Source: Candidatus Berkelbacteria bacterium (GTDB taxonomy: Bacteria > Patescibacteriota > UBA1384 > XYA2-FULL-43-10 > 1-14-0-10-43-13). From it: a stretch of DNA of 64,000 bases. The notes beneath the pieces were generated by a model. That model was not told the origin of the DNA, searched no databases, and saw only the letters and a list, made by a program, of their open reading frames with translations. The stretch spans positions 47,186 through 111,185 of the forward strand of contig JBAWZC010000002.1 of NCBI GenBank assembly GCA_037143235.1. The letters run 5' to 3'. This document shows positions 2,750-22,862 of this stretch, one piece after another. The position numbers and the translations under genes were made by a program. Every line of letters begins with the position of its first letter. Positions within the stretch are counted from its first letter, which is position 1.

Positions 2750-3175
2750 TTAATTGGCTACACAACTTGTTGCGGTACATTTAATACCACCAGTGCTGCC
2801 AATAGTAATCGAAACTATTGCACCAGAGTTAATATTCATCGCAGATGGCTTGTTAAGATTATTTTTAAACAAAGCAGAATCTGGCCATGAACCAGTTATG
2901 GTAGTGCTTGGTGCCAATGTACCAGTAGAGTTTTTAACACAGACTGAAGTACCAGCGGCTGGATAAATAGTCATAGGTCTTAGATACTCACCCGCGGCCA
3001 AACATTGTTGAGCCAGCTTTACAGCATTATCCAAATTAGCCGCATCGGTGGTATTTTTAGCTTTGGTTGATGCCCCAGCTGACGAATAAATCACTACACC
3101 TGCCAAGATGCCGATGATGGCGATGACAATCAAAAGCTCGATCAAGGTAAAACCCTTTTTAATTCCTTTTAACAT
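2750..3175 (-). CDS. type IV pilin (candidate major pilin)
   Basis: MLKGIKKG|FTLIELLIVIAIIGILAGVV is a canonical G-1/F+1/E+5 prepilin leader. 141 aa with paired C-terminal Cys (disulfide loop). Confidence 0.8.
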   Translation of the reverse strand: MLKGIKKGFTLIELLIVIAIIGILAGVVIYSSAGASTKAKNTTDAANLDNAVKLAQQCLAAGEYLRPMTIYPAAGTSVCVKNSTGTLAPSTTITGSWPDSALFKNNLNKPSAMNINSGAIVSITIGSTGGIKCTATSCVAN

Positions 3176-3458
3176 ATTCCCTCCTAATTATAATTCGGTT
3201 TATTGTTACTTCTCGATTCGCGGACTCACTCGAAGAATAAAATGCTTACGATAAAGAATTTATTGTACGAGCCTGTCGAGAACCGACCACTTATTTTACT
3301 TCCCTTTTAATTTGCTTGCTCTCTGATCGACCAGCCAGAGAAGCAAAATATCTATAATAATATTATATATTCTATTACCACATCAGTGCAAGAGCACAGA
3401 TGAAATTTCTAAATTTCCAATTTCTCAATCAAACGATCAACCAAATAAATAATCTTGA

Positions 3459-5953: not shown

Positions 5954-6210
5954 AGCGTCATTAATTCAATATAAAAGTAATTGTTTGACCCTTCCGTAGC
6001 TCGAAGAGCGAAGGAGGGCTTAATTCAATTTGCAAGTCTGTTCTCCACAAGGTCGAACCATAACTTTTTATTCTTCGAGCGAGTCTGACGAGTCGAGAAG
6101 TCCAACTCTGTTCTCGATCCATAAACACCATTTCTGTCTATATATATTCTACTCGAATAGCACTGCACAAGCAAACTATTGGCCTGCAACCGTTTACATA
6201 CAACCACAGA

Positions 6211-9178: not shown

Positions 9179-9243
9179 CATTTATTACTCTTCGAGCGAG
9201 TTCCCGAGTCGAGAAGTAACCAATCCAAAAGAAACAACCAAAT

Positions 9244-14225: not shown

Positions 14226-14298
14226 CTGTCATTCCCGCGCAGGCGGGAATCTACCAAAAGGTTTACTGTTTGTGGATTCCCGCCTGCGCGGGAATGAC
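14226..14298. repeat. 73-nt palindromic element (tgtcattcccgcgcaggcgggaatc ... gattcccgcctgcgcgggaatgaca)
   Basis: Perfect 25-nt inverted arms around a 23-nt spacer. A related copy lies at 22296-22395. Confidence 0.6.
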
Positions 14299-14411
14299 AA
14301 ATGAATCGGGAGAGACATTTTTTTTATTCTTCGAGCGAGTTTGACGAGTCGAGAAGTATCAGACTGTTCTCCTCAAGCTCGAACCATAGCTATTGAGATG
14401 ACCGATATTAT

Positions 14412-15743
14412 CTATTGCCTGATCTCGTACCTTGGTTTGCCAAAAGGAATGCGATCAGGTGCGGACTGACGAGAGGTGAACATCGAAGCACTACAAACCG
14501 TATCCGCACCATAAATATCGTTGATCTTGTCCTGTGCCTTAGAAATGCCAGCTATTTTCCCCAAATCATCAAATATACTCAACTGTGAGGCTTTGCTGCT
14601 CGATAAATTAAAGAAGGAGATCGCCAGATGGATCGGCCGACTTTCAAATTTACAGTCAAGGAGAAGGTATTTCAGTTTTTCCCAAGCCGTAGCATCGTCA
14701 CAAAAAGGGACAAATTTTTTGCTGATATGAAAATTACTATGATCGAGAAATGAGATCGAGGCCATCAAGCCTCCTGCCAAAAAATTCCCCGCTCGCAGCC
14801 GATAGCTTGCTTTGAAAATTAACTTTCGCAGGATAGCCATCGCCCCTTCGCGAGTACGAAACTCTGGCGCTAGCACATGCGAGTGCCCAATCGTCTTAGT
14901 GGTCGTCAAATCCATTCGCGGAGAGCTGGTCGAATCTACCTGTGGTGAGCTTGTCGAATCCATCCATGGTGAGCCTGTCGAATCCACCTCATACCCCCGC
15001 AAACGAAAATACCAAGCCCTGCCACAATGTTTTAACCTCTGAGTCATTTCCCCCGCCGACAGATGAAATAATTGAAGCGGGGAAATTACGCCCAGACGAT
15101 TTAGCTGCGCTTCCATCCGCACATTGATACCAGTCAGATCAGTTAATTTGAGCTTGGAATAAAAATCTTCAAGTTCGTTTAATCGCACGATTGTAAAACC
15201 ATCTGGTTTTTGCCGCTCGGCTGCCATCTTGGCCAAGAATTTTGACGGACCCACGCCGACCGAGCAGCGCAAGCTATCCCCCACCTCGTCACGAATTTTT
15301 TTCTTTAATTTCGCAGCTATCTGTCTCGCCACCACTTCGTTTTGCTCGCATCGATCCAACTTCAGGGCAAATTCATCGACACTACACACCTCGAAATATG
15401 GCGTGACCGACTCGATCACCTTTTTTATCTTCTGGTGATAAGAAATATAGAGCGCTGGTCTCGCTTCGACAATTTCGATCTGTGGACAAAGCCTTTTAGC
15501 CTGTTCGTTTCGACAAATCCGCACACCCATCGCCTTGGCCTCATAGGAGGCAGCGATGATGCAACCAGATGGACCAGTGTACGGAGACACACCGATCGGC
15601 TGCCCCCTCAACTCTGGCCGAACCTGCTGTTCGACCGACGCAAAAAAAGAGTTCATATCAAGAAAAAGAGTTGAAAAATCTTTTGGTGGTTGCATAACAC
15701 CATCATACATCAAAAATCGAACAAATACCGAACATTTATCCAC
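14412..15743 (-). CDS. dinB: Y-family DNA polymerase IV (DinB/UmuC family)
   Basis: 443 aa. The N-terminal motif FLDMNSFFASVE corresponds to DinB's DMDAFFASVE, with palm/finger motifs. An in-frame 3x ~9-aa repeat insert (VDSTGSPWM-DSTSSPQV-DSTSSPRM) lies mid-protein. Confidence 0.75.
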   Translation of the reverse strand: MDKCSVFVRFLMYDGVMQPPKDFSTLFLDMNSFFASVEQQVRPELRGQPIGVSPYTGPSGCIIAASYEAKAMGVRICRNEQAKRLCPQIEIVEARPALYISYHQKIKKVIESVTPYFEVCSVDEFALKLDRCEQNEVVARQIAAKLKKKIRDEVGDSLRCSVGVGPSKFLAKMAAERQKPDGFTIVRLNELEDFYSKLKLTDLTGINVRMEAQLNRLGVISPLQLFHLSAGEMTQRLKHCGRAWYFRLRGYEVDSTGSPWMDSTSSPQVDSTSSPRMDLTTTKTIGHSHVLAPEFRTREGAMAILRKLIFKASYRLRAGNFLAGGLMASISFLDHSNFHISKKFVPFCDDATAWEKLKYLLLDCKFESRPIHLAISFFNLSSSKASQLSIFDDLGKIAGISKAQDKINDIYGADTVCSASMFTSRQSAPDRIPFGKPRYEIRQ

Positions 15744-16727: not shown

Positions 16728-16901
16728 ATGAAATACGAATTTTTAACAGTGGAAGAAACAGCGAAAATTCTCAAGGTTACTAAGATGACCATTTATCGCT
16801 ATATCAAGGCTGGCAAGCTGACGGCTTATAAAGTTGGTAAAGATTTTAGGATAAACAAAGAAGAATTTGATAAGTTTTTAAATGAAATACGAAAGGGATA
16901 A
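16728..16901 (+). CDS. excisionase-family helix-turn-helix DNA-binding protein (Xis-like)
   Basis: 57 aa: MKYEFLTVEETAKILKVTKMTIYRYIKAGKLTAYKVGKDFRINKEEFDKFL, the classic excisionase/MerR-type HTH signature. Below the 60-aa cutoff of the ORF track. Confidence 0.6.
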   Translation: MKYEFLTVEETAKILKVTKMTIYRYIKAGKLTAYKVGKDFRINKEEFDKFLNEIRKG

Positions 16902-16904
16902 TTT

Positions 16905-17339
16905 ATGGATACATTATTTTTGATTATTACAGCACTTGGGGCTTTGGTTATTGGTATTCCATTGCTAATCTTTGTTTTAATCCCTTTGTGGTATATATGC
17001 ATTCCAATTATATTTACTATTCTACTTGGCTGGATTGGTTTATTTTTCGGAATTGGATTGGTGACTGTAATCTTCTGTGTTAAATGGATATTAACCGATA
17101 ATAACGACAAAGAAAAAGCACCGACAAAAAAGGAAGATAAACCAGATTCCAAAAAAGCATTTTTAGCTTTTATTACGGTATTCAGTATTTGGGGATTATC
17201 AAATTGGCTCTTCACTGATATTTTAGTACGACTTCACGGAACAAATAACGATTCAGACGGTTTGCTAATAATTATTTTTATGGCAGTGTCTGGCTTTGCC
17301 AGCTATAAGGTTGGGCAAAAAATGATAGAGGCCAAATAG
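16905..17339 (+). CDS. membrane protein (4 TM), unknown function
   Basis: 144 aa, hydrophobic, with a Lys-rich loop. Confidence 0.45.
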   Translation: MDTLFLIITALGALVIGIPLLIFVLIPLWYICIPIIFTILLGWIGLFFGIGLVTVIFCVKWILTDNNDKEKAPTKKEDKPDSKKAFLAFITVFSIWGLSNWLFTDILVRLHGTNNDSDGLLIIIFMAVSGFASYKVGQKMIEAK

Positions 17340-17343
17340 CAGA

Positions 17344-17655
17344 ATGAAATCAATTATTCTTGCCAGAGTATCAACAGAAGACCAAAAAGAGGCTGGCAAT
17401 TCATTGCCCACTCAAATTAAGCGTCTGAAAGATTATTGCAAAAGAAAAGATTTGGAGGTTATCAAAAAATTCAGCTTTGACGAATCAGCCTATAAAACCA
17501 AAAGAGATAAGTTCGATCGTATTCTTGAGTATCCGAAAGGCAACAAAGTAAAGATTGCTGTTTGCTTTGATAAGGTTGATTACTTTTCTAGAGCACCTGG
17601 GGACGCTCCCCAATTAGATACGGTTTTTGCAATAAGAAAATTTCTCAGAGAATAA
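17344..17655 (+). pseudogene. serine recombinase (resolvase/invertase) N-terminal fragment, truncated
   Basis: 103 aa, MKSIILARVSTEDQ..., the catalytic Ser motif (Y/L-ARVST-x2-Q) of serine recombinases. The ORF ends after about half the catalytic domain and lacks a DNA-binding domain. Confidence 0.6.
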
Positions 17656-17674
17656 CTCGATCAGTTGACCATCA

Positions 17675-17708
17675 AAACAAACACCTCACATGTATGAGGT
17701 GTTTGTTT
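17675..17708. terminator. conserved hairpin terminator (same family as 15769, 40017, 42433)
   Basis: aaacaaacacctcacatgtatgaggtgtttgtttt with a 14-bp perfect stem. Confidence 0.6.
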
Positions 17709-17736
17709 TGGCAGAGGCAAGAGGAATCGAACCCCT
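17709..17736 (-). other. tRNA 3' fragment (T-arm + acceptor 3' strand + CCA), possibly an att-site duplication or the 3' exon of a split tRNA
   Basis: Minus strand AGGGG-TTCGATT-CCTCT-TGCCTCT-G-CCA. No contiguous D or anticodon arm upstream. Confidence 0.4.
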
Positions 17737-17777
17737 AATAAAGGTTTTGCCTGTCCTCCGTAGCATTAAATCAATTT

Positions 17778-17851
17778 TGGCAGGCCTTAGAGGAGTCGGA
17801 CCTCTGACTAAGGTTTTGGAGACCTTCGTTATACCGCTTAACTAAAGGCCT
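17778..17851 (-). tRNA. tRNA-Trp(CCA)-like, 74 nt, unusual T-loop
   Basis: Hand fold: AGGCCTT/TA/GTTA-AGCGGTA-TAAC/G/AAGGT-CTCCAAA-ACCTT/AGTC/AGAGG-TCCGACT-CCTCT/AAGGCCT/G/CCA. Anticodon CCA. The T-loop has C at position 55. Confidence 0.5.
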
Positions 17852-17880
17852 ATCAAAATTGATTTGAGAAGGAGGAGAGA

Positions 17881-17939
17881 CCTCCAGCCTACACTTCAAG
17901 CTACGGCCGGCAAGCCGTTATACCATTTAACTATACCCC
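17881..17939 (-). other. tRNA 5'-half-like sequence (acceptor + D-arm) lacking a contiguous anticodon/T arm
   Basis: Minus strand AGGGGTA-TA-GTTA-AATGGTA-TAAC-G-GCTTGCCGGCCG... The acceptor strand AGGGGTA can pair (with G-U pairs) with TGCCTCT of the fragment at 17709-17736. Confidence 0.35.
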
Positions 17940-18339
17940 TAAAGACAAGCAATAAGCTTGCAAGCAGTAAGAATTAAGCTGAATACACTTAAACACTTAC
18001 CGGATTACTTGCCACAAAGTGGCCCCTTTGGGGCTTACCAGCCTGTCTTACTTTGTTTCTTTGTGATTGGTGCGAACTTTGCAAGTTTTGCAATACTTTG
18101 GCAGTTCGATCCGCTTGATAACGTCTTGCCCCTTCATACGCTTCTCAGTATGGTAACCTCTGCTTTTGCATGTTTCACATTCCAATGTGATCAATTTTCT
18201 AGCTTCCTTGGCCATGGATTCCTTGTTTCTATTACCCCGGATTTAATCCGGCATCTATTTAATGTTTCTCTGGATCCTGAATCAAGTTCAGGATGACATA
18301 CATTTTTTTGTCCCGCATAGCCCGTAGGGCGACGTGAGA

Positions 18340-18414
18340 TGGAGCCGATGGAGGGAATCGAACCCGCAACCTTCACTTTACAAAAGTGTTGCTCTACCAT
18401 TGAGCTACATCGGC
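18340..18414 (-). tRNA. tRNA-Thr(TGT)
   Basis: GCCGATG/TA/GCTC-AATGGTA-GAGC/A/ACACT-TTTGTAA-AGTGA/AGGTT/GCGGG-TTCGATT-CCCTC/CATCGGC/T/CCA. One mismatch each in the anticodon stem and T stem. Confidence 0.6.
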
Positions 18415-19010
18415 ATTTTAAATTTTTCTATCCACCCAACAATAACCTTAAGCAAATTCTTGTCGGAATATCTCAAAGAGGCCGTCCCATACTTTGATAT
18501 TTTCTTGTAACTTCCATTTGAATGGGCGTGACAATATGTTTTGCTAAACTGGCTTGTGGGAATTTTCGTACGATCAGACCAATATTTTTTCAGCTCTATC
18601 TCGTTTTGGTCATCGTATATATGAAGCAATAACCTAAGCCTCTGCTCCGACACTCCACATATCTCTCTCAAAAAACGAAGGAAATAACTCACCATATTAG
18701 GATCACTGTTGCTAAAAACAACACTATTGCCGTCTTTCGTGCCCTCGCCCCAGTACAGCATAACTCCAGCTATGCGCAAAACCTCTTGTTCTGGAGTTAA
18801 ATTTGTCAACACATTGCAAGAGTGTCTTCCAAATTTTGTTTCATGCAACAATCGACTTGCACTACTGTGATCCCTTCTGGGAACATTGCCAGCTATCAGC
18901 ACCTGATTTATACGAGACGATCCGATTCCAATTTTATCAGAAATTTGCTTGACTGAAAAACCAGACTGGTACATTTCAACGATTAATTTTGTTTCATGCA
19001 TACTTAACAT
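18405..19010 (-). CDS. HTH-domain protein, possible degenerate LAGLIDADG-type homing endonuclease
   Basis: 201 aa with an N-terminal HTH (FSVKQISDKIGIGSSRINQVL). MLYWGEGTKDGNSVVF resembles a LAGLIDADG/GDG motif. It sits between tRNA genes and its 5' end overlaps tRNA-Thr by 10 nt. Confidence 0.4.
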   Translation of the reverse strand: MLSMHETKLIVEMYQSGFSVKQISDKIGIGSSRINQVLIAGNVPRRDHSSASRLLHETKFGRHSCNVLTNLTPEQEVLRIAGVMLYWGEGTKDGNSVVFSNSDPNMVSYFLRFLREICGVSEQRLRLLLHIYDDQNEIELKKYWSDRTKIPTSQFSKTYCHAHSNGSYKKISKYGTASLRYSDKNLLKVIVGWIEKFKMPM

Positions 19011-19059
19011 AACAATGTTATACCAGACCTACTGTTATGCAACAACTATTTGAGTCGAG

Positions 19060-19145
19060 TGGTGCTGGGAGCAGGATTCGAACCTACGAAGGCATAAGCC
19101 GCCTGATTTACAGTCAGGTGCATTTGACCGCTTTGCTATCCCAGC
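19060..19145 (-). tRNA. tRNA-Tyr(GTA), long variable arm
   Basis: GCTGGGA/TA/GCAA-AGCGGTCAAA-TGC/ACCTGA-CTGTAAA-TCAGG/CGGCTTATGCCTTCG/TAGGT-TCGAATC-CTGC/TCCCAGC/A/CCA. Confidence 0.65.
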
Positions 19146-19373
19146 ATGCATCTCGCATTTCACCATTTCATCACTTTTTCATTTAAACATTTATAAATAA
19201 ATGACTAAATGATTAATTGATTAAATGGATGCATTTGGCCCTTCGACAAACTCAGGGTCATTCGACTTTACGACCAAGTTAATTAACTCACAGAATGGTT
19301 CACCATCCCTCGACCATGAGCCTCTCGGGATCGAATGGTGAGCGAGAGACCAGATTGTTGGTCTCGAGTCGAA

Positions 19374-19449
19374 TGGAGCCGTTGACGGGAATTGGACCCG
19401 TGACCTCGCCCTTACCAAGGGCGTGCTCTACCAACTGAGCTACAACGGC
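19374..19449 (-). tRNA. tRNA-Thr(GGT)
   Basis: GCCGTTG/TA/GCTC-AGTTGGTA-GAGC/A/CGCCC-TTGGTAA-GGGCG/AGGTC/ACGGG-TCCAATT-CCCGT/CAACGGC/T/CCA. All stems are perfect. The T-loop has C at position 55. Confidence 0.7.
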
Positions 19450-19623
19450 GCTAGGCAACTGACGAGCAGGCCTGCCAACTGCTCCGCATCAGCCTATGGT
19501 TGAGCAGGAGTCCCTGCTTCCACACAGTGGAATGCGGGAAGCTACAACGGCGGGAGTGGTCGACAACGACAACAAAAAAAATTATAGCATTTTATCCGCT
19601 TTCATTCAACCTCTGTCAGAAAT

Positions 19624-20349
19624 TTATTTCATTCTGGCAACATTCGCATGCGAACGCATTTTTTCTTCAGCCATATTGGCTAATTCTTTGTAATCTTTAT
19701 TGTCTATATCCAAACTTGCAGCCCGCTTCAAAGCTTTCGATGCCTTTGCGAACTGTCTCACTTCCAGATAGGCTTCGCCGAGCTGCGCTAACCACTCAGG
19801 CTGAGTCCTACCGAGACCAACCGCGCTCTGTAAATATTCGATCGCACCGGTATAATTTTCATTTTTCAACTCGATTCGCCCAAGCCAAAAATATGTTTCA
19901 CCGATTTCATGATTGCATTTCAAAGAAGCTTTCAAGGATTCCTTGGCTTCCTCGAAATTACCACGAGAAAAAGCAACCTTACCCACCATTAAATAGGCAC
20001 TAGCGCAGCGCTTGCTACGGTTCAGTGCATCAATAGCCAATTCTTCGGCGACTCTCAGATCATTATTATTGTATGCGTCTGTTGCTTGCATCAAGATACC
20101 TGCCAGTTCTGGATCAGACTCGGCAAATGCCTTCTGGGCGTTTTCGATCTCCACTGGCGCAATCATCGGCTCACTCTTACCCAAAACTGCTTCCTCAATC
20201 TCAGACAGAGCAATCAGCTTGCGCCTCTTGCGAAATAAATCCCAAAAACGAAACTTCTTTTTAGGACCGTCAGGATTGGTTTCCGGAAAATGGCGGAGCA
20301 ATAAGAACAGCGCCGCGGCCAAACAAACTATGATTATTATTTCGTACAT
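19624..20349 (-). CDS. tetratricopeptide-repeat protein with N-terminal TM anchor
   Basis: 241 aa. Repeated A/Y/L/G TPR-like helices (AYLMVGKVAFSRGNFEEAKESLKASLK...). Confidence 0.6.
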   Translation of the reverse strand: MYEIIIIVCLAAALFLLLRHFPETNPDGPKKKFRFWDLFRKRRKLIALSEIEEAVLGKSEPMIAPVEIENAQKAFAESDPELAGILMQATDAYNNNDLRVAEELAIDALNRSKRCASAYLMVGKVAFSRGNFEEAKESLKASLKCNHEIGETYFWLGRIELKNENYTGAIEYLQSAVGLGRTQPEWLAQLGEAYLEVRQFAKASKALKRAASLDIDNKDYKELANMAEEKMRSHANVARMK

Positions 20350-22295: not shown

Positions 22296-22395
22296 TATTC
22301 TCCTTGTCATTCCCGCGCAGGCGGGAATCTACAAATAGTTGTATTATTCTGGATTCCTGCCGGAGTTTATCCTGAACTCGTTTCAGGGCAGGAAT
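22296..22395. repeat. palindromic element related to the one at 14226-14298
   Basis: Left arm tgtcattcccgcgcaggcgggaatctac. Right arm attcctgccggag...cagggcaggaatgacaa. Confidence 0.5.
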
Positions 22396-22688: not shown

Positions 22689-22862
22689 TTGTGCCCTATT
22701 CTAAGCTAATTTTTTTTGATAAGATTGCTTTGTATCATCATAACTTATTCTTCGAGCGAATTTGATGAGTCGAGAAGTATATAATAGTTTTCAACGGACC
22801 CGAACAAGAATTTCGATACTTGCCAATATTAACACAATTTCAATTATATTTCAAGGACAAAT

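Follow-up and report, generated by a model that had tools for sequence, protein, structure and literature searches.

Two stretches of a tRNA gene cluster in a Berkelbacteria-like (Patescibacteria) genome, at 17951-18339 and between tRNA-Thr(GGT) and tRNA-Tyr, appear to lack a convincing ORF and are rich in local hairpins. A reading of these letters without database searches (here termed the sequence-only reading) had proposed that an RNA gene, an intron or decayed element DNA could hide in them. We asked what the two stretches are, using the window, i.e. the whole 64 kb of DNA that was analysed, together with related loci.

The tRNA operon and the search for a hidden RNA

All features of the tRNA-Thr(GGT)–Tyr–Thr(TGT)–rpmG–tRNA-Trp operon are located on the minus strand. 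ARAGORN and Rfam identified tRNA-Thr(GGT) at 19374..19449 (RF00005, 70.1 bits), tRNA-Tyr(GTA) at 19060..19145, tRNA-Thr(TGT) at 18340..18414 and an intact tRNA-Trp(CCA) at 17778..17851. A promoter-like site, TTGAAT-17-TGnTATAAT (10/12 matches, with TG extension), was found at 19581..19609 (minus strand), and five relatives are weakly similar over a short length in the matching region upstream of tRNA-Thr(GGT) (E 0.015-0.18). The ~125-nt leader before this tRNA (19450..19575, minus strand) contains a second copy of 12 nt from the tRNA 5' end (GCCGTTGTAGCT, 19540-19551), behind which lies filler rich in hairpins. It is missing in the closest relative (L147), whose promoter-like region directly adjoins the tRNA. 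Remnants of a tRNA-Thr 5' end similar to this duplicate were also detected in L004, L009, L011 and L019. Transcription would proceed from the promoter through tRNA-Thr(GGT), tRNA-Tyr, an HTH-LAGLIDADG gene (present in only some relatives, see below), tRNA-Thr(TGT), rpmG and tRNA-Trp to the terminator.

The sequence-only reading had suspected a degenerate or intron-containing tRNA, for example tRNA-Gly, in the Thr-Tyr spacer and an intron, a tmRNA or an RNase P-like RNA in 17951-18339. There were grounds for this idea: thrU-tyrU-glyT-thrT is a common bacterial order, an Omnitrophica relative of the LAGLIDADG locus has the arrangement Thr-Tyr-Gly-Thr-tuf-rpmG, and group I introns, which annotation tools may miss, are known from the anticodon loop of tRNA genes in Patescibacteria (PMC13011429). 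We ran Rfam on the whole window at the gathering threshold and on 17600-19650 at E <= 10. At both thresholds we obtained the four tRNAs plus chance microRNA-type matches; RF00028, RF00023 and RF00010 were absent, and no intron, tmRNA or RNase P RNA was found. With ARAGORN and RF00005, neither strand of 17951-18339 or of 19146-19373 yielded a cloverleaf, and relaxing Rfam to E <= 10 did not change this. The Rfam tmRNA model does work on related loci, where it detected the tmRNAs of L055, L088 and L126. Moreover, tRNA-Gly did not occur in the cluster of any of 19 L33-anchored relatives or of three further Berkelbacteria-like loci, and the analogy to thrU-tyrU-glyT-thrT therefore fails in this clade. 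The Thr–Tyr spacer varies from 1 to 505 nt in Patescibacteria relatives and is only 1-5 nt long in four of them. In the window it measures 228 nt (19146-19373), not ~150 nt as first estimated, and this length, like the 124 nt (5') and 97 nt (3') that flank rpmG within 17951-18339, is short for a group I intron. With 168 of the 389 nt of the first stretch occupied by the rpmG coding sequence, we give practically no credence to a tRNA, a group I intron or a tmRNA/RNase P-like RNA hidden in either stretch.

rpmG and its repeat-rich flanks

The centre of the first stretch is rpmG, which encodes the 55-aa ribosomal protein bL33 (18048..18215, minus strand); the statement that this DNA holds no convincing ORF was wrong. 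The product matched Pfam PF00471 at 45.1 bits (cut-off 25), the TIGR01023 equivalog at 41.3 bits (cut-off 23.95) and NF001764 at 53.6 bits (cut-off 40). Its length falls within the ~50-56 aa of bL33, and its two cysteine pairs, read from the translation as C13-E-T-C16 and C42-K-T-C45, have the zinc-knuckle form. One of the listed hairpins, gcaagttttgc, is indeed present (~18081-18091) but lies inside the coding sequence, where it encodes the second CxxC (C-K-T-C) of this knuckle. Zn-free forms of L33 are known, and the loss of the second pair in some relatives fits them. Intact 55-aa orthologues (67-87% identical) were found between tRNA-Thr and tRNA-Trp in 19 of 19 relatives, and substitutions were dominated by third codon positions (277/171/602 by position). 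These data indicate that rpmG is under purifying selection at a syntenic position. A Shine-Dalgarno sequence, AAGGAA, is located at 18219-18224, and most relatives have an AAGGA-type ribosome-binding site. Since the gene is short and on the reverse strand, it was overlooked both by the sequence-only reading and by the gene caller of the source assembly, which placed a spurious 69-aa ORF here. An exact-sequence look-up of the L33 protein returned no record because the gene is uncalled in that assembly.

The bacterial neighbourhood tRNA-Thr/(tuf)/rpmG/tRNA-Trp/secE-nusG shares with the window the protein family, its length and its zinc-knuckle cysteines, as well as a tRNA-Thr upstream and a tRNA-Trp downstream of rpmG. 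However, the window has no tuf between tRNA-Thr and rpmG, unlike the Omnitrophica locus, and in the Berkelbacteria relative L141, the sole relative examined downstream, tRNA-Trp is followed by an amidohydrolase-like gene instead of secE-nusG. We infer that rpmG is co-transcribed with the tRNAs because a scan for sigma-70 promoters and terminators revealed neither a minus-strand promoter nor a canonical terminator beside it; the three terminator-like sites near rpmG are all on the wrong (+) strand.

Upstream of rpmG, the 124-nt spacer (18216..18339, minus strand), which would form its 5' UTR, contains hairpins at 18311-18339 and 18235-18252 and, at 18273-18297, a palindrome of the GTCAT type (GTCATCCTGAActtgaTTCAGGATC). 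The hairpin sequences cccggatttaatccgg and atcctgaatcaagttcaggat that had been listed for this stretch were recovered within 18235-18252 and 18273-18297, respectively. The 3' spacer (17946..18047, minus strand) has two small hairpins (18022-18034 and 18012-18022), followed by a 67-nt AT-rich imperfect palindrome of ~8-nt (G)TAAG / CTTA(C) units (17946-18012). As minus-strand RNA, both spacers folded better than their shuffles, with z = -2.96 for 18216-18339 (1/200 shuffles as good) and z = -3.49 for 17942-18047 (0/200), and to this extent the description of the stretch as structured was borne out.

These folds could be read as a dedicated cis-regulatory RNA, for example a leader for autoregulation by L33 or an attenuator/terminator balancing rpmG against tRNA-Trp expression. 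Palindromes of like type, with other sequence, also follow rpmG in L002, L004, L008, L010 and L013, and the 3' arm of the 17946-18012 palindrome is 89% identical to L004, which would agree with such a function. On the upstream side, however, the spacer is anywhere from about 26 to 343 nt long in relatives and shows no conserved sequence or structure, and the closest relative, readable for ~110 nt past tRNA-Thr(TGT), contains another palindrome but no GTCAT hairpin. The GTCAT…GGATC palindrome moreover occurs four times in the window (14228-14251, 14275-14298, 18273-18297 and 22306-22329) and at other positions in L007, L010 and L020. AT-rich arrays with an 8-nt period are likewise a general intergenic feature of this genome (4731-4869, 10788-10824, 14158-14208, 33836-34002 and others), and on the minus strand the stems lack a following T-run of the terminator kind. 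A regulatory RNA at rpmG is thus improbable. We conclude that rpmG is flanked by untranslated spacer with an AAGGAA ribosome-binding site, and that the hairpins belong to small repeat families (GTCAT..GGATC and AT-rich 8-nt-period) strewn through the intergenic DNA of the genome. They are probably not a dedicated RNA gene or an intron and would at most separate the tRNAs from the rpmG message as processing or terminator-like stems.

In being multi-copy, short, imperfect palindromes with conserved flanks that are dispersed between genes, these repeats resemble the REP/BIME sequences of enterobacteria. The GTAG tetranucleotide of REP is replaced here by flanking GTCAT or tTATT, and the RAYT (Y1) transposase that mobilizes REP/BIME was not found among the ORFs around the locus. 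The suggestion of decayed element DNA came close for the rpmG flanks, while rpmG itself is coding and the better fit is the element at 19227-19373 described below. The significance of 17951-18339 itself is small: a missed rpmG has been added to the annotation, and its hairpins have been shown to be ordinary intergenic repeats.

An element at the 3' ends of tRNA and tmRNA genes

The second stretch gave a different picture. Directly abutting the end of tRNA-Thr(GGT) at 19374, we found an ORF-less copy of an element that starts at 19373 and extends to 19227 (minus strand), identified by covariance model R1 and pair counts. The element consensus is roughly 75-190 nt long and reads TTCGACTCG…CTCGCTCATGG…GAGTCGAATG-CCCTGAG…GTCGAAGGG. 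The window copy scored 60.7 bits over the full length of the model (E 5e-12), was the only full copy in 64 kb, and contains the blocks TTCGACTCG, CTCGCTCA (TGG..CCA), GAGTCGAATG and CCCTGAG..GTCGAAGGG together with the stems P1, P3 and P4. In transcribed order these are the 5' strand of P1 (TTCGACTCG, 19365-19373), a variable hairpin (19346-19365), the conserved block CTCGCTCA (19339-19346), an extra 33-nt hairpin unit (19306-19338), P3 (ATGGTGAACCAT, 19295-19306), the 3' strand of P1 (AGTCGAATG, 19259-19267) and P4 (ACCCTGAGTTTGTCGAAGGGCC, 19237-19258). Two hairpins noted earlier in this spacer are part of the picture, ctctcgggatcgaatggtgagcgagag at ~19325-19351 and ggtcgtaaagtcgaatgacc (minus strand) at ~19257-19276. 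The 33-nt unit is inserted inside the second conserved block, and because of it the window copy may be damaged. As minus-strand RNA, 19225-19373 folded only marginally better than shuffles (z = -1.88, 8/200 as good).

The AT-rich rest of the spacer (19146..19236, minus strand) includes a tandem array with an 8-nt period (TAAATGAT x3.8, 19198-19227) and has no GIY-YIG-type ORF. No homology was found between this 91-nt tail and the closest relative's Thr-Tyr spacer, which is also 91 nt long; their alignment scored below shuffles.

Each of the 15 strong matches to the element (>50 bits) has its start at the CCA end of a tRNA or tmRNA or no more than a few bases away from it. The hosts are genes for tRNA-Thr, Tyr, Ala, Ser and Arg, or tmRNA (three assignments, that of L131 by its 3'-end sequence only). 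The metagenome loci were fetched by an element-derived pattern and their frequencies are therefore biased; tRNA adjacency was not in the pattern. A GIY-YIG ORF follows the element in five of the 15 matches (L019, L020, L055, L126 and L131) and also a variant copy in L088. ORF-less copies like that of the window occur in L008 and L009, as the second copy in L019 and as the first copy in L020. At the orthologous site, the element is absent in the closest relative and in most others. In an alignment of 13 copies, 87.6% of cells pair, compared with 30-50% when the partners are slid, and seven pairs show double changes. The sequence and structure of 19227-19373 are thus conserved in other genomes, which had been proposed as a check on a hidden RNA, but the conserved entity is an element flanking tRNA and tmRNA genes and not a tRNA. 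Rfam, run on ten element-bearing loci, found their tmRNAs and tRNAs and no family for the element.

Several specific readings of the element were discarded. Pairing of the tRNA CCA with the conserved TGG of CTCGCTCATGG is contradicted by the pairing of this TGG with a downstream CCA in P3, a covarying hairpin of variable length. A T-box-like UGGN/discriminator match did not hold. For a hammerhead- or HDV-like reading of CUGAG...GUCGAAGGG, the consensus cores did not fit by eye and Rfam gave no match. The conserved ATG in GAATG does not start the GIY-YIG ORF, as it is in frame with that ORF in L019 only and meets stops in L020 and L126. Finally, a duplicated target site at the tRNA 3' end is not a rule: only L126 has a direct repeat, in which 22 nt of the tmRNA 3' end recur behind the cargo, and the 14 other copies have none.

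Does the family encode a functional structured RNA, for example a self-cleaving or processing module that releases the tRNA at its CCA and defines where the downstream message begins, or else a decoy resembling a tRNA? The invariable position at CCA ends would fit, as would sequence blocks that are near-identical from AT-rich Patescibacteria to GC-rich genomes, the double changes in P1, P3 and P4, and the cloverleaf-like outline in which P1 encloses two or three hairpins. Such an RNA would be a new class, all Rfam families being unmatched. However, the covariation fits RNA pairing and DNA hairpins alike, and the element proved to be a mosaic of inverted GAGCGAG...CGAGTCGA-type hairpin units with a linker, in which the 5' half matches the 3' hairpin unit in reverse complement. 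On the transcribed strand, the G.A pairs of this half become weak U.C/C.U mismatches, which points to inverted repeats at the DNA level. These units also lie scattered at a distance from tRNAs, in metagenomes as well as in the window, where CTTCGAGCGAG..CGAGTCGAGAAG recurs at 3209-3235, 6073-6100, 9190-9216, 14329-14356 and 22750-22777, in each case in a gap between listed ORFs. The absence of the element from the closest and most other relatives at the same site argues that the host does not need it, and the window copy barely beats shuffles in folding. A functional RNA is unlikely on this balance, though we would not call its chance negligible.

The mosaic of inverted units with a linker is again reminiscent of BIMEs; unlike these, the full element is not dispersed but confined to the 3' ends of tRNA and tmRNA genes, and it is associated with GIY-YIG genes. 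Genomic islands at the att sites of tyrosine integrases also carry cargo directly downstream of a tRNA or tmRNA, and the direct repeat in L126 would be in keeping with them. The cargo here, however, measures ~0.1-0.5 kb and has no integrase, and 14 of the 15 copies lack direct repeats.

The window copy is a member of this family, starts at the end of tRNA-Thr(GGT) and is polymorphic in presence and absence among relatives. It was probably acquired recently and appears to be an inert relic or a non-autonomous member of a selfish cassette. It would be transcribed within the tRNA precursor and discarded during processing, and its conserved stems would serve the cassette rather than the host, either as a leader that forms once the tRNA is cut from the nuclease mRNA or as DNA hairpins recognized at insertion. 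Taken together, we estimate a probability of roughly 0.8 that both stretches are spacers of one minus-strand operon, the first consisting mostly of rpmG and repeat hairpins and the second of the relic of a selfish cassette.

Putative nuclease genes and a nested tRNA-Trp in the operon

Between tRNA-Tyr and tRNA-Thr(TGT), the operon carries a free-standing gene of 201 aa with an HTH and a LAGLIDADG fold (18405..19010, minus strand), whose stop codon TAG is located inside the 5' end of tRNA-Thr(TGT). The protein has the LAGLIDADG fold and, at the C-terminal end of the motif helix, the acidic residue expected for catalysis; there, closing helix 73-89, Y86, W87, E89 and G90 do not vary among 45 sequences. 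In Pfam it did not fall into LAGLIDADG_1/2/3 and gave weak HTH matches only; against PDB, its profile hit I-DmoI at E = 0.3. The gene always adjoins tRNA-Thr(TGT), is found at the same site in L005, L141 and L147, and is missing in other relatives. We regard the protein as a candidate homing endonuclease, an assignment to which the variable presence at one site lends indirect support.

Phage T4 SegB is a precedent for a free-standing GIY-YIG homing endonuclease gene in a tRNA cluster (PMC2330249). Nuclease genes also lie between tRNA genes here, of GIY-YIG type in relatives and LAGLIDADG type in the window, and their presence varies between close relatives. In contrast to SegB, the predicted GIY-YIG nucleases are single domains of ~85-95 aa with no DNA-binding extension. 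A conserved structured element, starting at the CCA, precedes their genes, which are chromosomal in Patescibacteria as well as in other bacteria rather than phage-borne.

At the other end of the operon, the intact tRNA-Trp is nested inside an older, split tRNA-Trp. The tRNA fragments reported at the border of the first stretch are real and are remnants of this older gene. On its 5' side (17852..17940, minus strand), the remnant AGGGGTATAGTTAAATGGTATAAC (17917-17940) is followed by filler and by a leader arm (AAATCAATTT, 17856-17865) with TGAT behind it. On the 3' side (17674..17777, minus strand), a trailer arm (AAATTGATTT, 17768-17777) precedes the 3' remnant (17709-17751) and the hairpin-plus-T-run terminator-like sequence of the operon (17674-17709). 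Covariation was seen in the helix of leader and trailer arms around the inner tRNA-Trp. In L005 and L006, the outer tRNA-Trp is broken after CTCC, at about position 35/36. As with group I introns, an essential tRNA gene is thus interrupted in or near the anticodon loop. The insert, however, is ~120-190 nt long, contains no ribozyme (RF00028 gave no match) and holds a complete second tRNA-Trp, and the interrupted copy looks dead rather than spliced.

Literature searches turned up no account of the tRNA-flank element, of the nested tRNA-Trp or of the LAGLIDADG family linked to tRNA-Thr. As a speculative extension, which we consider possible but less likely than not, the element would define an undescribed class of miniature selfish cassettes, a structured module with or without a single-domain GIY-YIG, that insert at tRNA and tmRNA CCA ends across distant phyla. 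The same processes would then lie behind the nested tRNA-Trp (17709-17940), the duplicated tRNA-Thr 5' end and the tRNA-Thr(TGT)-linked LAGLIDADG gene, and the operon would serve homing-type nucleases as a hotspot for the replacement of tRNA genes, with no reliance on self-splicing introns. It is even conceivable that the structured module is a new self-cleaving or processing RNA by which the CCA end of the tRNA is released.

While the finding itself is mostly ordinary, the hotspot of selfish elements around the two stretches is of more interest. One element family, absent from Rfam, is common to tmRNA and tRNA genes of unrelated bacteria, and the Thr-Tyr-Thr-rpmG-Trp operon of this group of Patescibacteria appears to have been invaded repeatedly by small nuclease genes and structured elements, which keep to tRNA boundaries with single-nucleotide precision. 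Should the cassettes be mobile, they would exemplify a selfish element that targets essential tRNA genes without a self-splicing intron, either by landing exactly after the CCA or by bringing a replacement tRNA. Such mobility would also explain the tRNA fragments and odd spacers that confuse the annotation of candidate phyla.

The minus-strand operon and its rpmG gene

ARAGORN and Rfam agreed on four minus-strand tRNA genes: tRNA-Thr(GGT) (19374-19449), tRNA-Tyr (19060-19145), tRNA-Thr(TGT) (18340-18414) and tRNA-Trp (17778-17851). On the same strand, a promoter scan picked out TTGAAT-17-TATAAT at 19609-19581, which resembles a promoter and has a TG extension, and a terminator-like hairpin with a T-run behind it lies at 17709-17674. 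Both stretches, 17951-18339 and 19221-19373, therefore lie as spacers inside a single minus-strand operon. The sequence-only reading had described them as structured and ORF-less. The hairpins it listed exist in the sequence, but the first stretch does contain a gene.

The ORF at 18048..18215(-), translated as MAKEARKLITLECETCKSRGYHTEKRMKGQDVIKRIELPKYCKTCKVRTNHKETK, scored 45.1 bits against Pfam Ribosomal_L33 (cut-off 25), 41.3 bits against the NCBIfam rpmG equivalog TIGR01023 (cut-off 23.95) and 53.6 bits against NF001764 (cut-off 40), and is thus rpmG. The supposed RNA hairpin gcaagttttgc corresponds to the codons for C-K-T-C in the L33 zinc knuckle. A scan covering one genome per species returned 55-aa orthologues at 19 loci with 67-87% identity, the nearest relatives being Candidatus Berkelbacteria and other Patescibacteria MAGs. 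The gene lay between a tRNA-Thr and tRNA-Trp in 19/19 of these loci, including L006 with a cluster partly masked by an N-run. Such an rpmG adjoining tRNA-Thr and tRNA-Trp is a textbook arrangement. Summed over the 19 comparisons, differences were distributed 277/171/602 by codon position, the signature of purifying selection, and most relatives have an AAGGA-type ribosome-binding site ahead of the ATG. The gene caller of the source assembly (ENA ERZ27300156, where the window lies in the 85-kb metagenome contig k141_1159762) missed rpmG and instead has a spurious 69-aa ORF (18191-18400) overlapping the tRNA; an exact-sequence look-up found no record of the window L33 sequence. The first stretch (~390 nt) is ordinary.

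Minus-strand RNA folds of the rpmG flanks gave z = -2.96 for the 5' spacer (beyond 18215) and z = -3.49 for the 3' spacer (beyond 18048). Of three hairpins in the 124-nt upstream spacer, the best is GTCATCCTGAActtgaTTCAGGATC (18273-18297, -). It is a member of a dispersed family of palindromes flanked by GTCAT..GGATC (GTCATyCC…GGrATC); elsewhere in the window this family has GTCATTCCCGCgcagGCGGGAATC copies at 14228-14251 (+), 14275-14298 (-) and 22306-22329 (+). Near-identical copies occur at varied positions among the relatives' loci: L010 has two in its Thr(TGT)-rpmG spacer, L020 has one, and in L007 one precedes the tRNA cluster. The closest relative found, L147 (LAGLIDADG protein 90% identical to that of the window), has no GTCAT hairpin in the ~110 readable nt past tRNA-Thr(TGT) and carries a different palindrome there. 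This spacer measures about 26 to 343 nt in relatives. The downstream spacer is mainly a 67-nt AT-rich imperfect palindrome of ~8-nt units; its sequence is common only to L004 (89% over 65 nt, into tRNA-Trp), and palindromes of like style and different sequence follow rpmG in several relatives. Tandem or inverted arrays of 7-8-nt period are common in intergenic DNA of this genome (4731-4869, 10788-10824, 14158-14208, 19198-19227, 33836-34002, 57484-57540, 62433-62848). They sit in AT-rich DNA, mostly between listed ORFs, are often imperfect palindromes, and their period is not the DNA helical repeat.

Rfam gave no match on the rpmG flanks even at E <= 10. We conclude that the flanks are ordinary untranslated spacers with repeat-family hairpins, neither intron nor RNA gene; the hairpins may act as processing stems. 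The hairpin families of the window resemble REP/BIME elements but are without the defining GTAG motif, and the ORFs around the locus include no RAYT transposase.

An element at tRNA and tmRNA 3' ends

For the second stretch a hidden tRNA-Gly had been suggested. ARAGORN and the Rfam tRNA model were blank on both strands of the Thr(GGT)-Tyr spacer (19146-19373), and no tRNA-Gly was present in the cluster in the 19 L33-anchored relatives or three further Berkelbacteria-like loci, among which this spacer ranges from 1 nt (L008, L012, L019) to 505 nt (L007). RNA gene, intron and hidden tRNA were rejected as readings of the two stretches.

From the first base past CCA, the spacer reads TTCGACTCG, hairpin, CTCGCTCA, 33-nt extra unit, ATGGTGAACCAT, linker, AGTCGAATG, ACCCTGAGtttGTCGAAGGGCC; we refer to this as the flank element (window copy 19227-19373, -). 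A like architecture follows tRNA-Thr or tRNA-Tyr in L008, L009, L019 and L020 (two copies each in the last two), and a metagenome pattern scan found further copies directly 3' of tRNA-Ala, tRNA-Ser, tRNA-Arg and tmRNA genes, in unrelated, GC-rich organisms.

In a 13-copy alignment, 87.6% of cells in the three proposed stems pair, vs 30-50% with slid partners, and both sides changed in seven pairs. A covariance model from this alignment scored 60.7 bits on the window copy and found no other full copy in the 64-kb window; no Rfam family matches any copy. Across ~900 kb of loci, each of the 15 matches above 50 bits starts at, or no more than a few bases from, a tRNA or tmRNA 3' end, with the L128 match beginning ~11 nt beyond the called tRNA end and the tmRNA of L131 assigned from its 3'-end sequence only. 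The model was trained on 13 of these 15, which leaves L074 and L128 as independent additions. Lower-scoring hits consist of isolated hairpin pairs that are not next to tRNAs. The window copy belongs to this family and is positioned at the CCA end. Its minus-strand RNA fold (19225-19373) is marginal (z = -1.88), and the 91-nt, AT-rich Thr-Tyr spacer of L147 is without the element. The stem pairing fits RNA and DNA hairpins equally well. We consider it unlikely that the element is a functional RNA, let alone one that cleaves itself, at the 3' end of the tRNA.

The 3' hairpin CCCTGAG..GTCGAAGGG is the same unit as the reverse complement of the 5' part TGAGCGAG..CGAGTCGAA, a common GC-rich palindrome of soil-type metagenomes (GTCATCCTGAGCGAGCGnAGCGAGTCGAAGGA) that made up most of the 120+ matches in the pattern scan. 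The 33-nt insertion of the window copy is one more unit (TCCCGAG..GTCGAGGGA, 19306-19330). The same unit in opposite orientations, plus the extra one, makes the flank element look like a mosaic of inverted palindromic units. BIMEs are likewise mosaics, of REPs, but the flank element differs in its strict tRNA-end position and its link to a nuclease gene. A close variant with conserved flanks, tTATT-CTTCGAGCGAGTnTGACGAGTCGAGAAG-TA, shares its core with the hairpin units and is dispersed in the window at 3209-3235 (-) and at 6073-6100, 9190-9216, 14329-14356 and 22750-22777 (+). A 24-nt tandem repeat, GAGCTTGTCGAATCCACCTATGGT x2.8 (14923-14989), includes the GAGCTTGTCGAA motif of the palindromic repeats; it lies in frame within a DinB/IMS-family polymerase gene (ORF 14412-15743, -) and encodes peptide repeats …VDSTSSP….

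A small GIY-YIG ORF lies 3' of the flank element in L019, L020, L055, L126 and L131 (PF01541 confirmed for two). In L088 a variant copy without the last hairpin is followed by an ORF resembling, by eye, the C-terminal part of these proteins; no GIY-YIG ORF follows the window copy or several others. The element is polymorphic in presence between close relatives and associated with GIY-YIG genes. In L126 the flank element and GIY-YIG gene form a 460-bp insert after the tmRNA gene, with a 22-nt direct repeat of the tmRNA 3' end, differing by one mismatch, on either side (2677-2698, 3155-3176); L088 has a shorter remnant. The other copies have no direct repeat of the tRNA or tmRNA 3' end. Since only L126 carries such a repeat past the cargo, classical att-type integration does not apply in general.

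A second, unrelated post-CCA family, CGTAAAA..TCACGTGGCAC, occurs in L005, L007 and L141. Its multi-hairpin modules CGTAAAAATCGA…TCGATTCACGTGGCAC start at the first base after tRNA CCA ends, with tandem repeats in L007 and GIY-YIG genes downstream in L007 and L141.

Nested tRNA genes and a putative homing endonuclease

The tRNA fragments bounding the first stretch are halves of an older tRNA-Trp (5', 17917-17940; 3', 17709-17751; both -), split by an insert carrying the intact tRNA-Trp. The arms abutting the inner gene are complementary (AAATCAATTT-TGAT-[tRNA]-AAATTGATTT), and the outer acceptor stems can still pair. The layout recurs in L005, L006, L007, L008, L009 and L014 with different arm sequences. 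Over the seven genomes, both sides changed in 9/10 pairs of the arm helix, and 82.6% of cells pair vs 30-54% when slid. In L010 the order is a decayed tRNA-Trp, an ORF that by eye looks GIY-YIG-like, and an intact tRNA-Trp. Group I introns interrupt tRNA genes of Patescibacteria (PMC13011429), as the tRNA genes here are interrupted, but the window case has no ribozyme.

A 12-nt duplicate of the tRNA-Thr(GGT) 5' end (19540-19551, -), absent from L147, lies ~90 nt upstream of the real tRNA within the leader 19450-19575 and is followed by hairpin-rich filler. L004, L009, L011 and L019 hold tRNA-Thr copies that are nested or partial and have insertions in the D-loop or T-loop.

On the plus strand (16728-17655), a convergent block lies immediately past the terminator-like site of the operon. 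It comprises an excisionase-like HTH_17 ORF of 57 aa, a membrane ORF of 144 aa and a truncated, 103-aa serine recombinase that has just the N-terminal part of the Resolvase domain. The block resembles what is left of an integrated element adjoining tRNA-Trp.

Between the two stretches, a 201-aa ORF (18405-19010) has 156 unnamed homologues in Patescibacteria and Omnitrophica. Its predicted structure (pLDDT 93.7) has an N-terminal helix-turn-helix region and a LAGLIDADG-fold domain; in the latter, E89-G90 are invariant where the first helix ends. The family adjoins tRNA-Thr(TGT) in the window, L141, L143, L145, L146, L147 and L148: just upstream, with the stop codon within the tRNA 5' end, at five of the seven loci, and just downstream in L145 and L146. 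L005 has similar DNA at this site. The protein is a good candidate for a free-standing homing endonuclease; phage T4 SegB is likewise encoded in a tRNA cluster (PMC2330249).

Implications for the tRNA operon

A literature search of incomplete coverage, and hence weak evidence of novelty, found no description of the flank element, the nested tRNA-Trp or the tRNA-Thr-linked LAGLIDADG family. The second stretch is a member of an apparently undescribed element family that is probably selfish. The window copy may represent a selfish cassette in non-autonomous or decayed form, which would be co-transcribed with the tRNAs and then removed as spacer. The stems would serve the cassette, either as a leader of the nuclease message once this has been cut from the tRNA or as DNA hairpins in insertion. 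The nested, duplicated and partial tRNA copies are consistent with incoming cassettes that may have replaced tRNA genes repeatedly.
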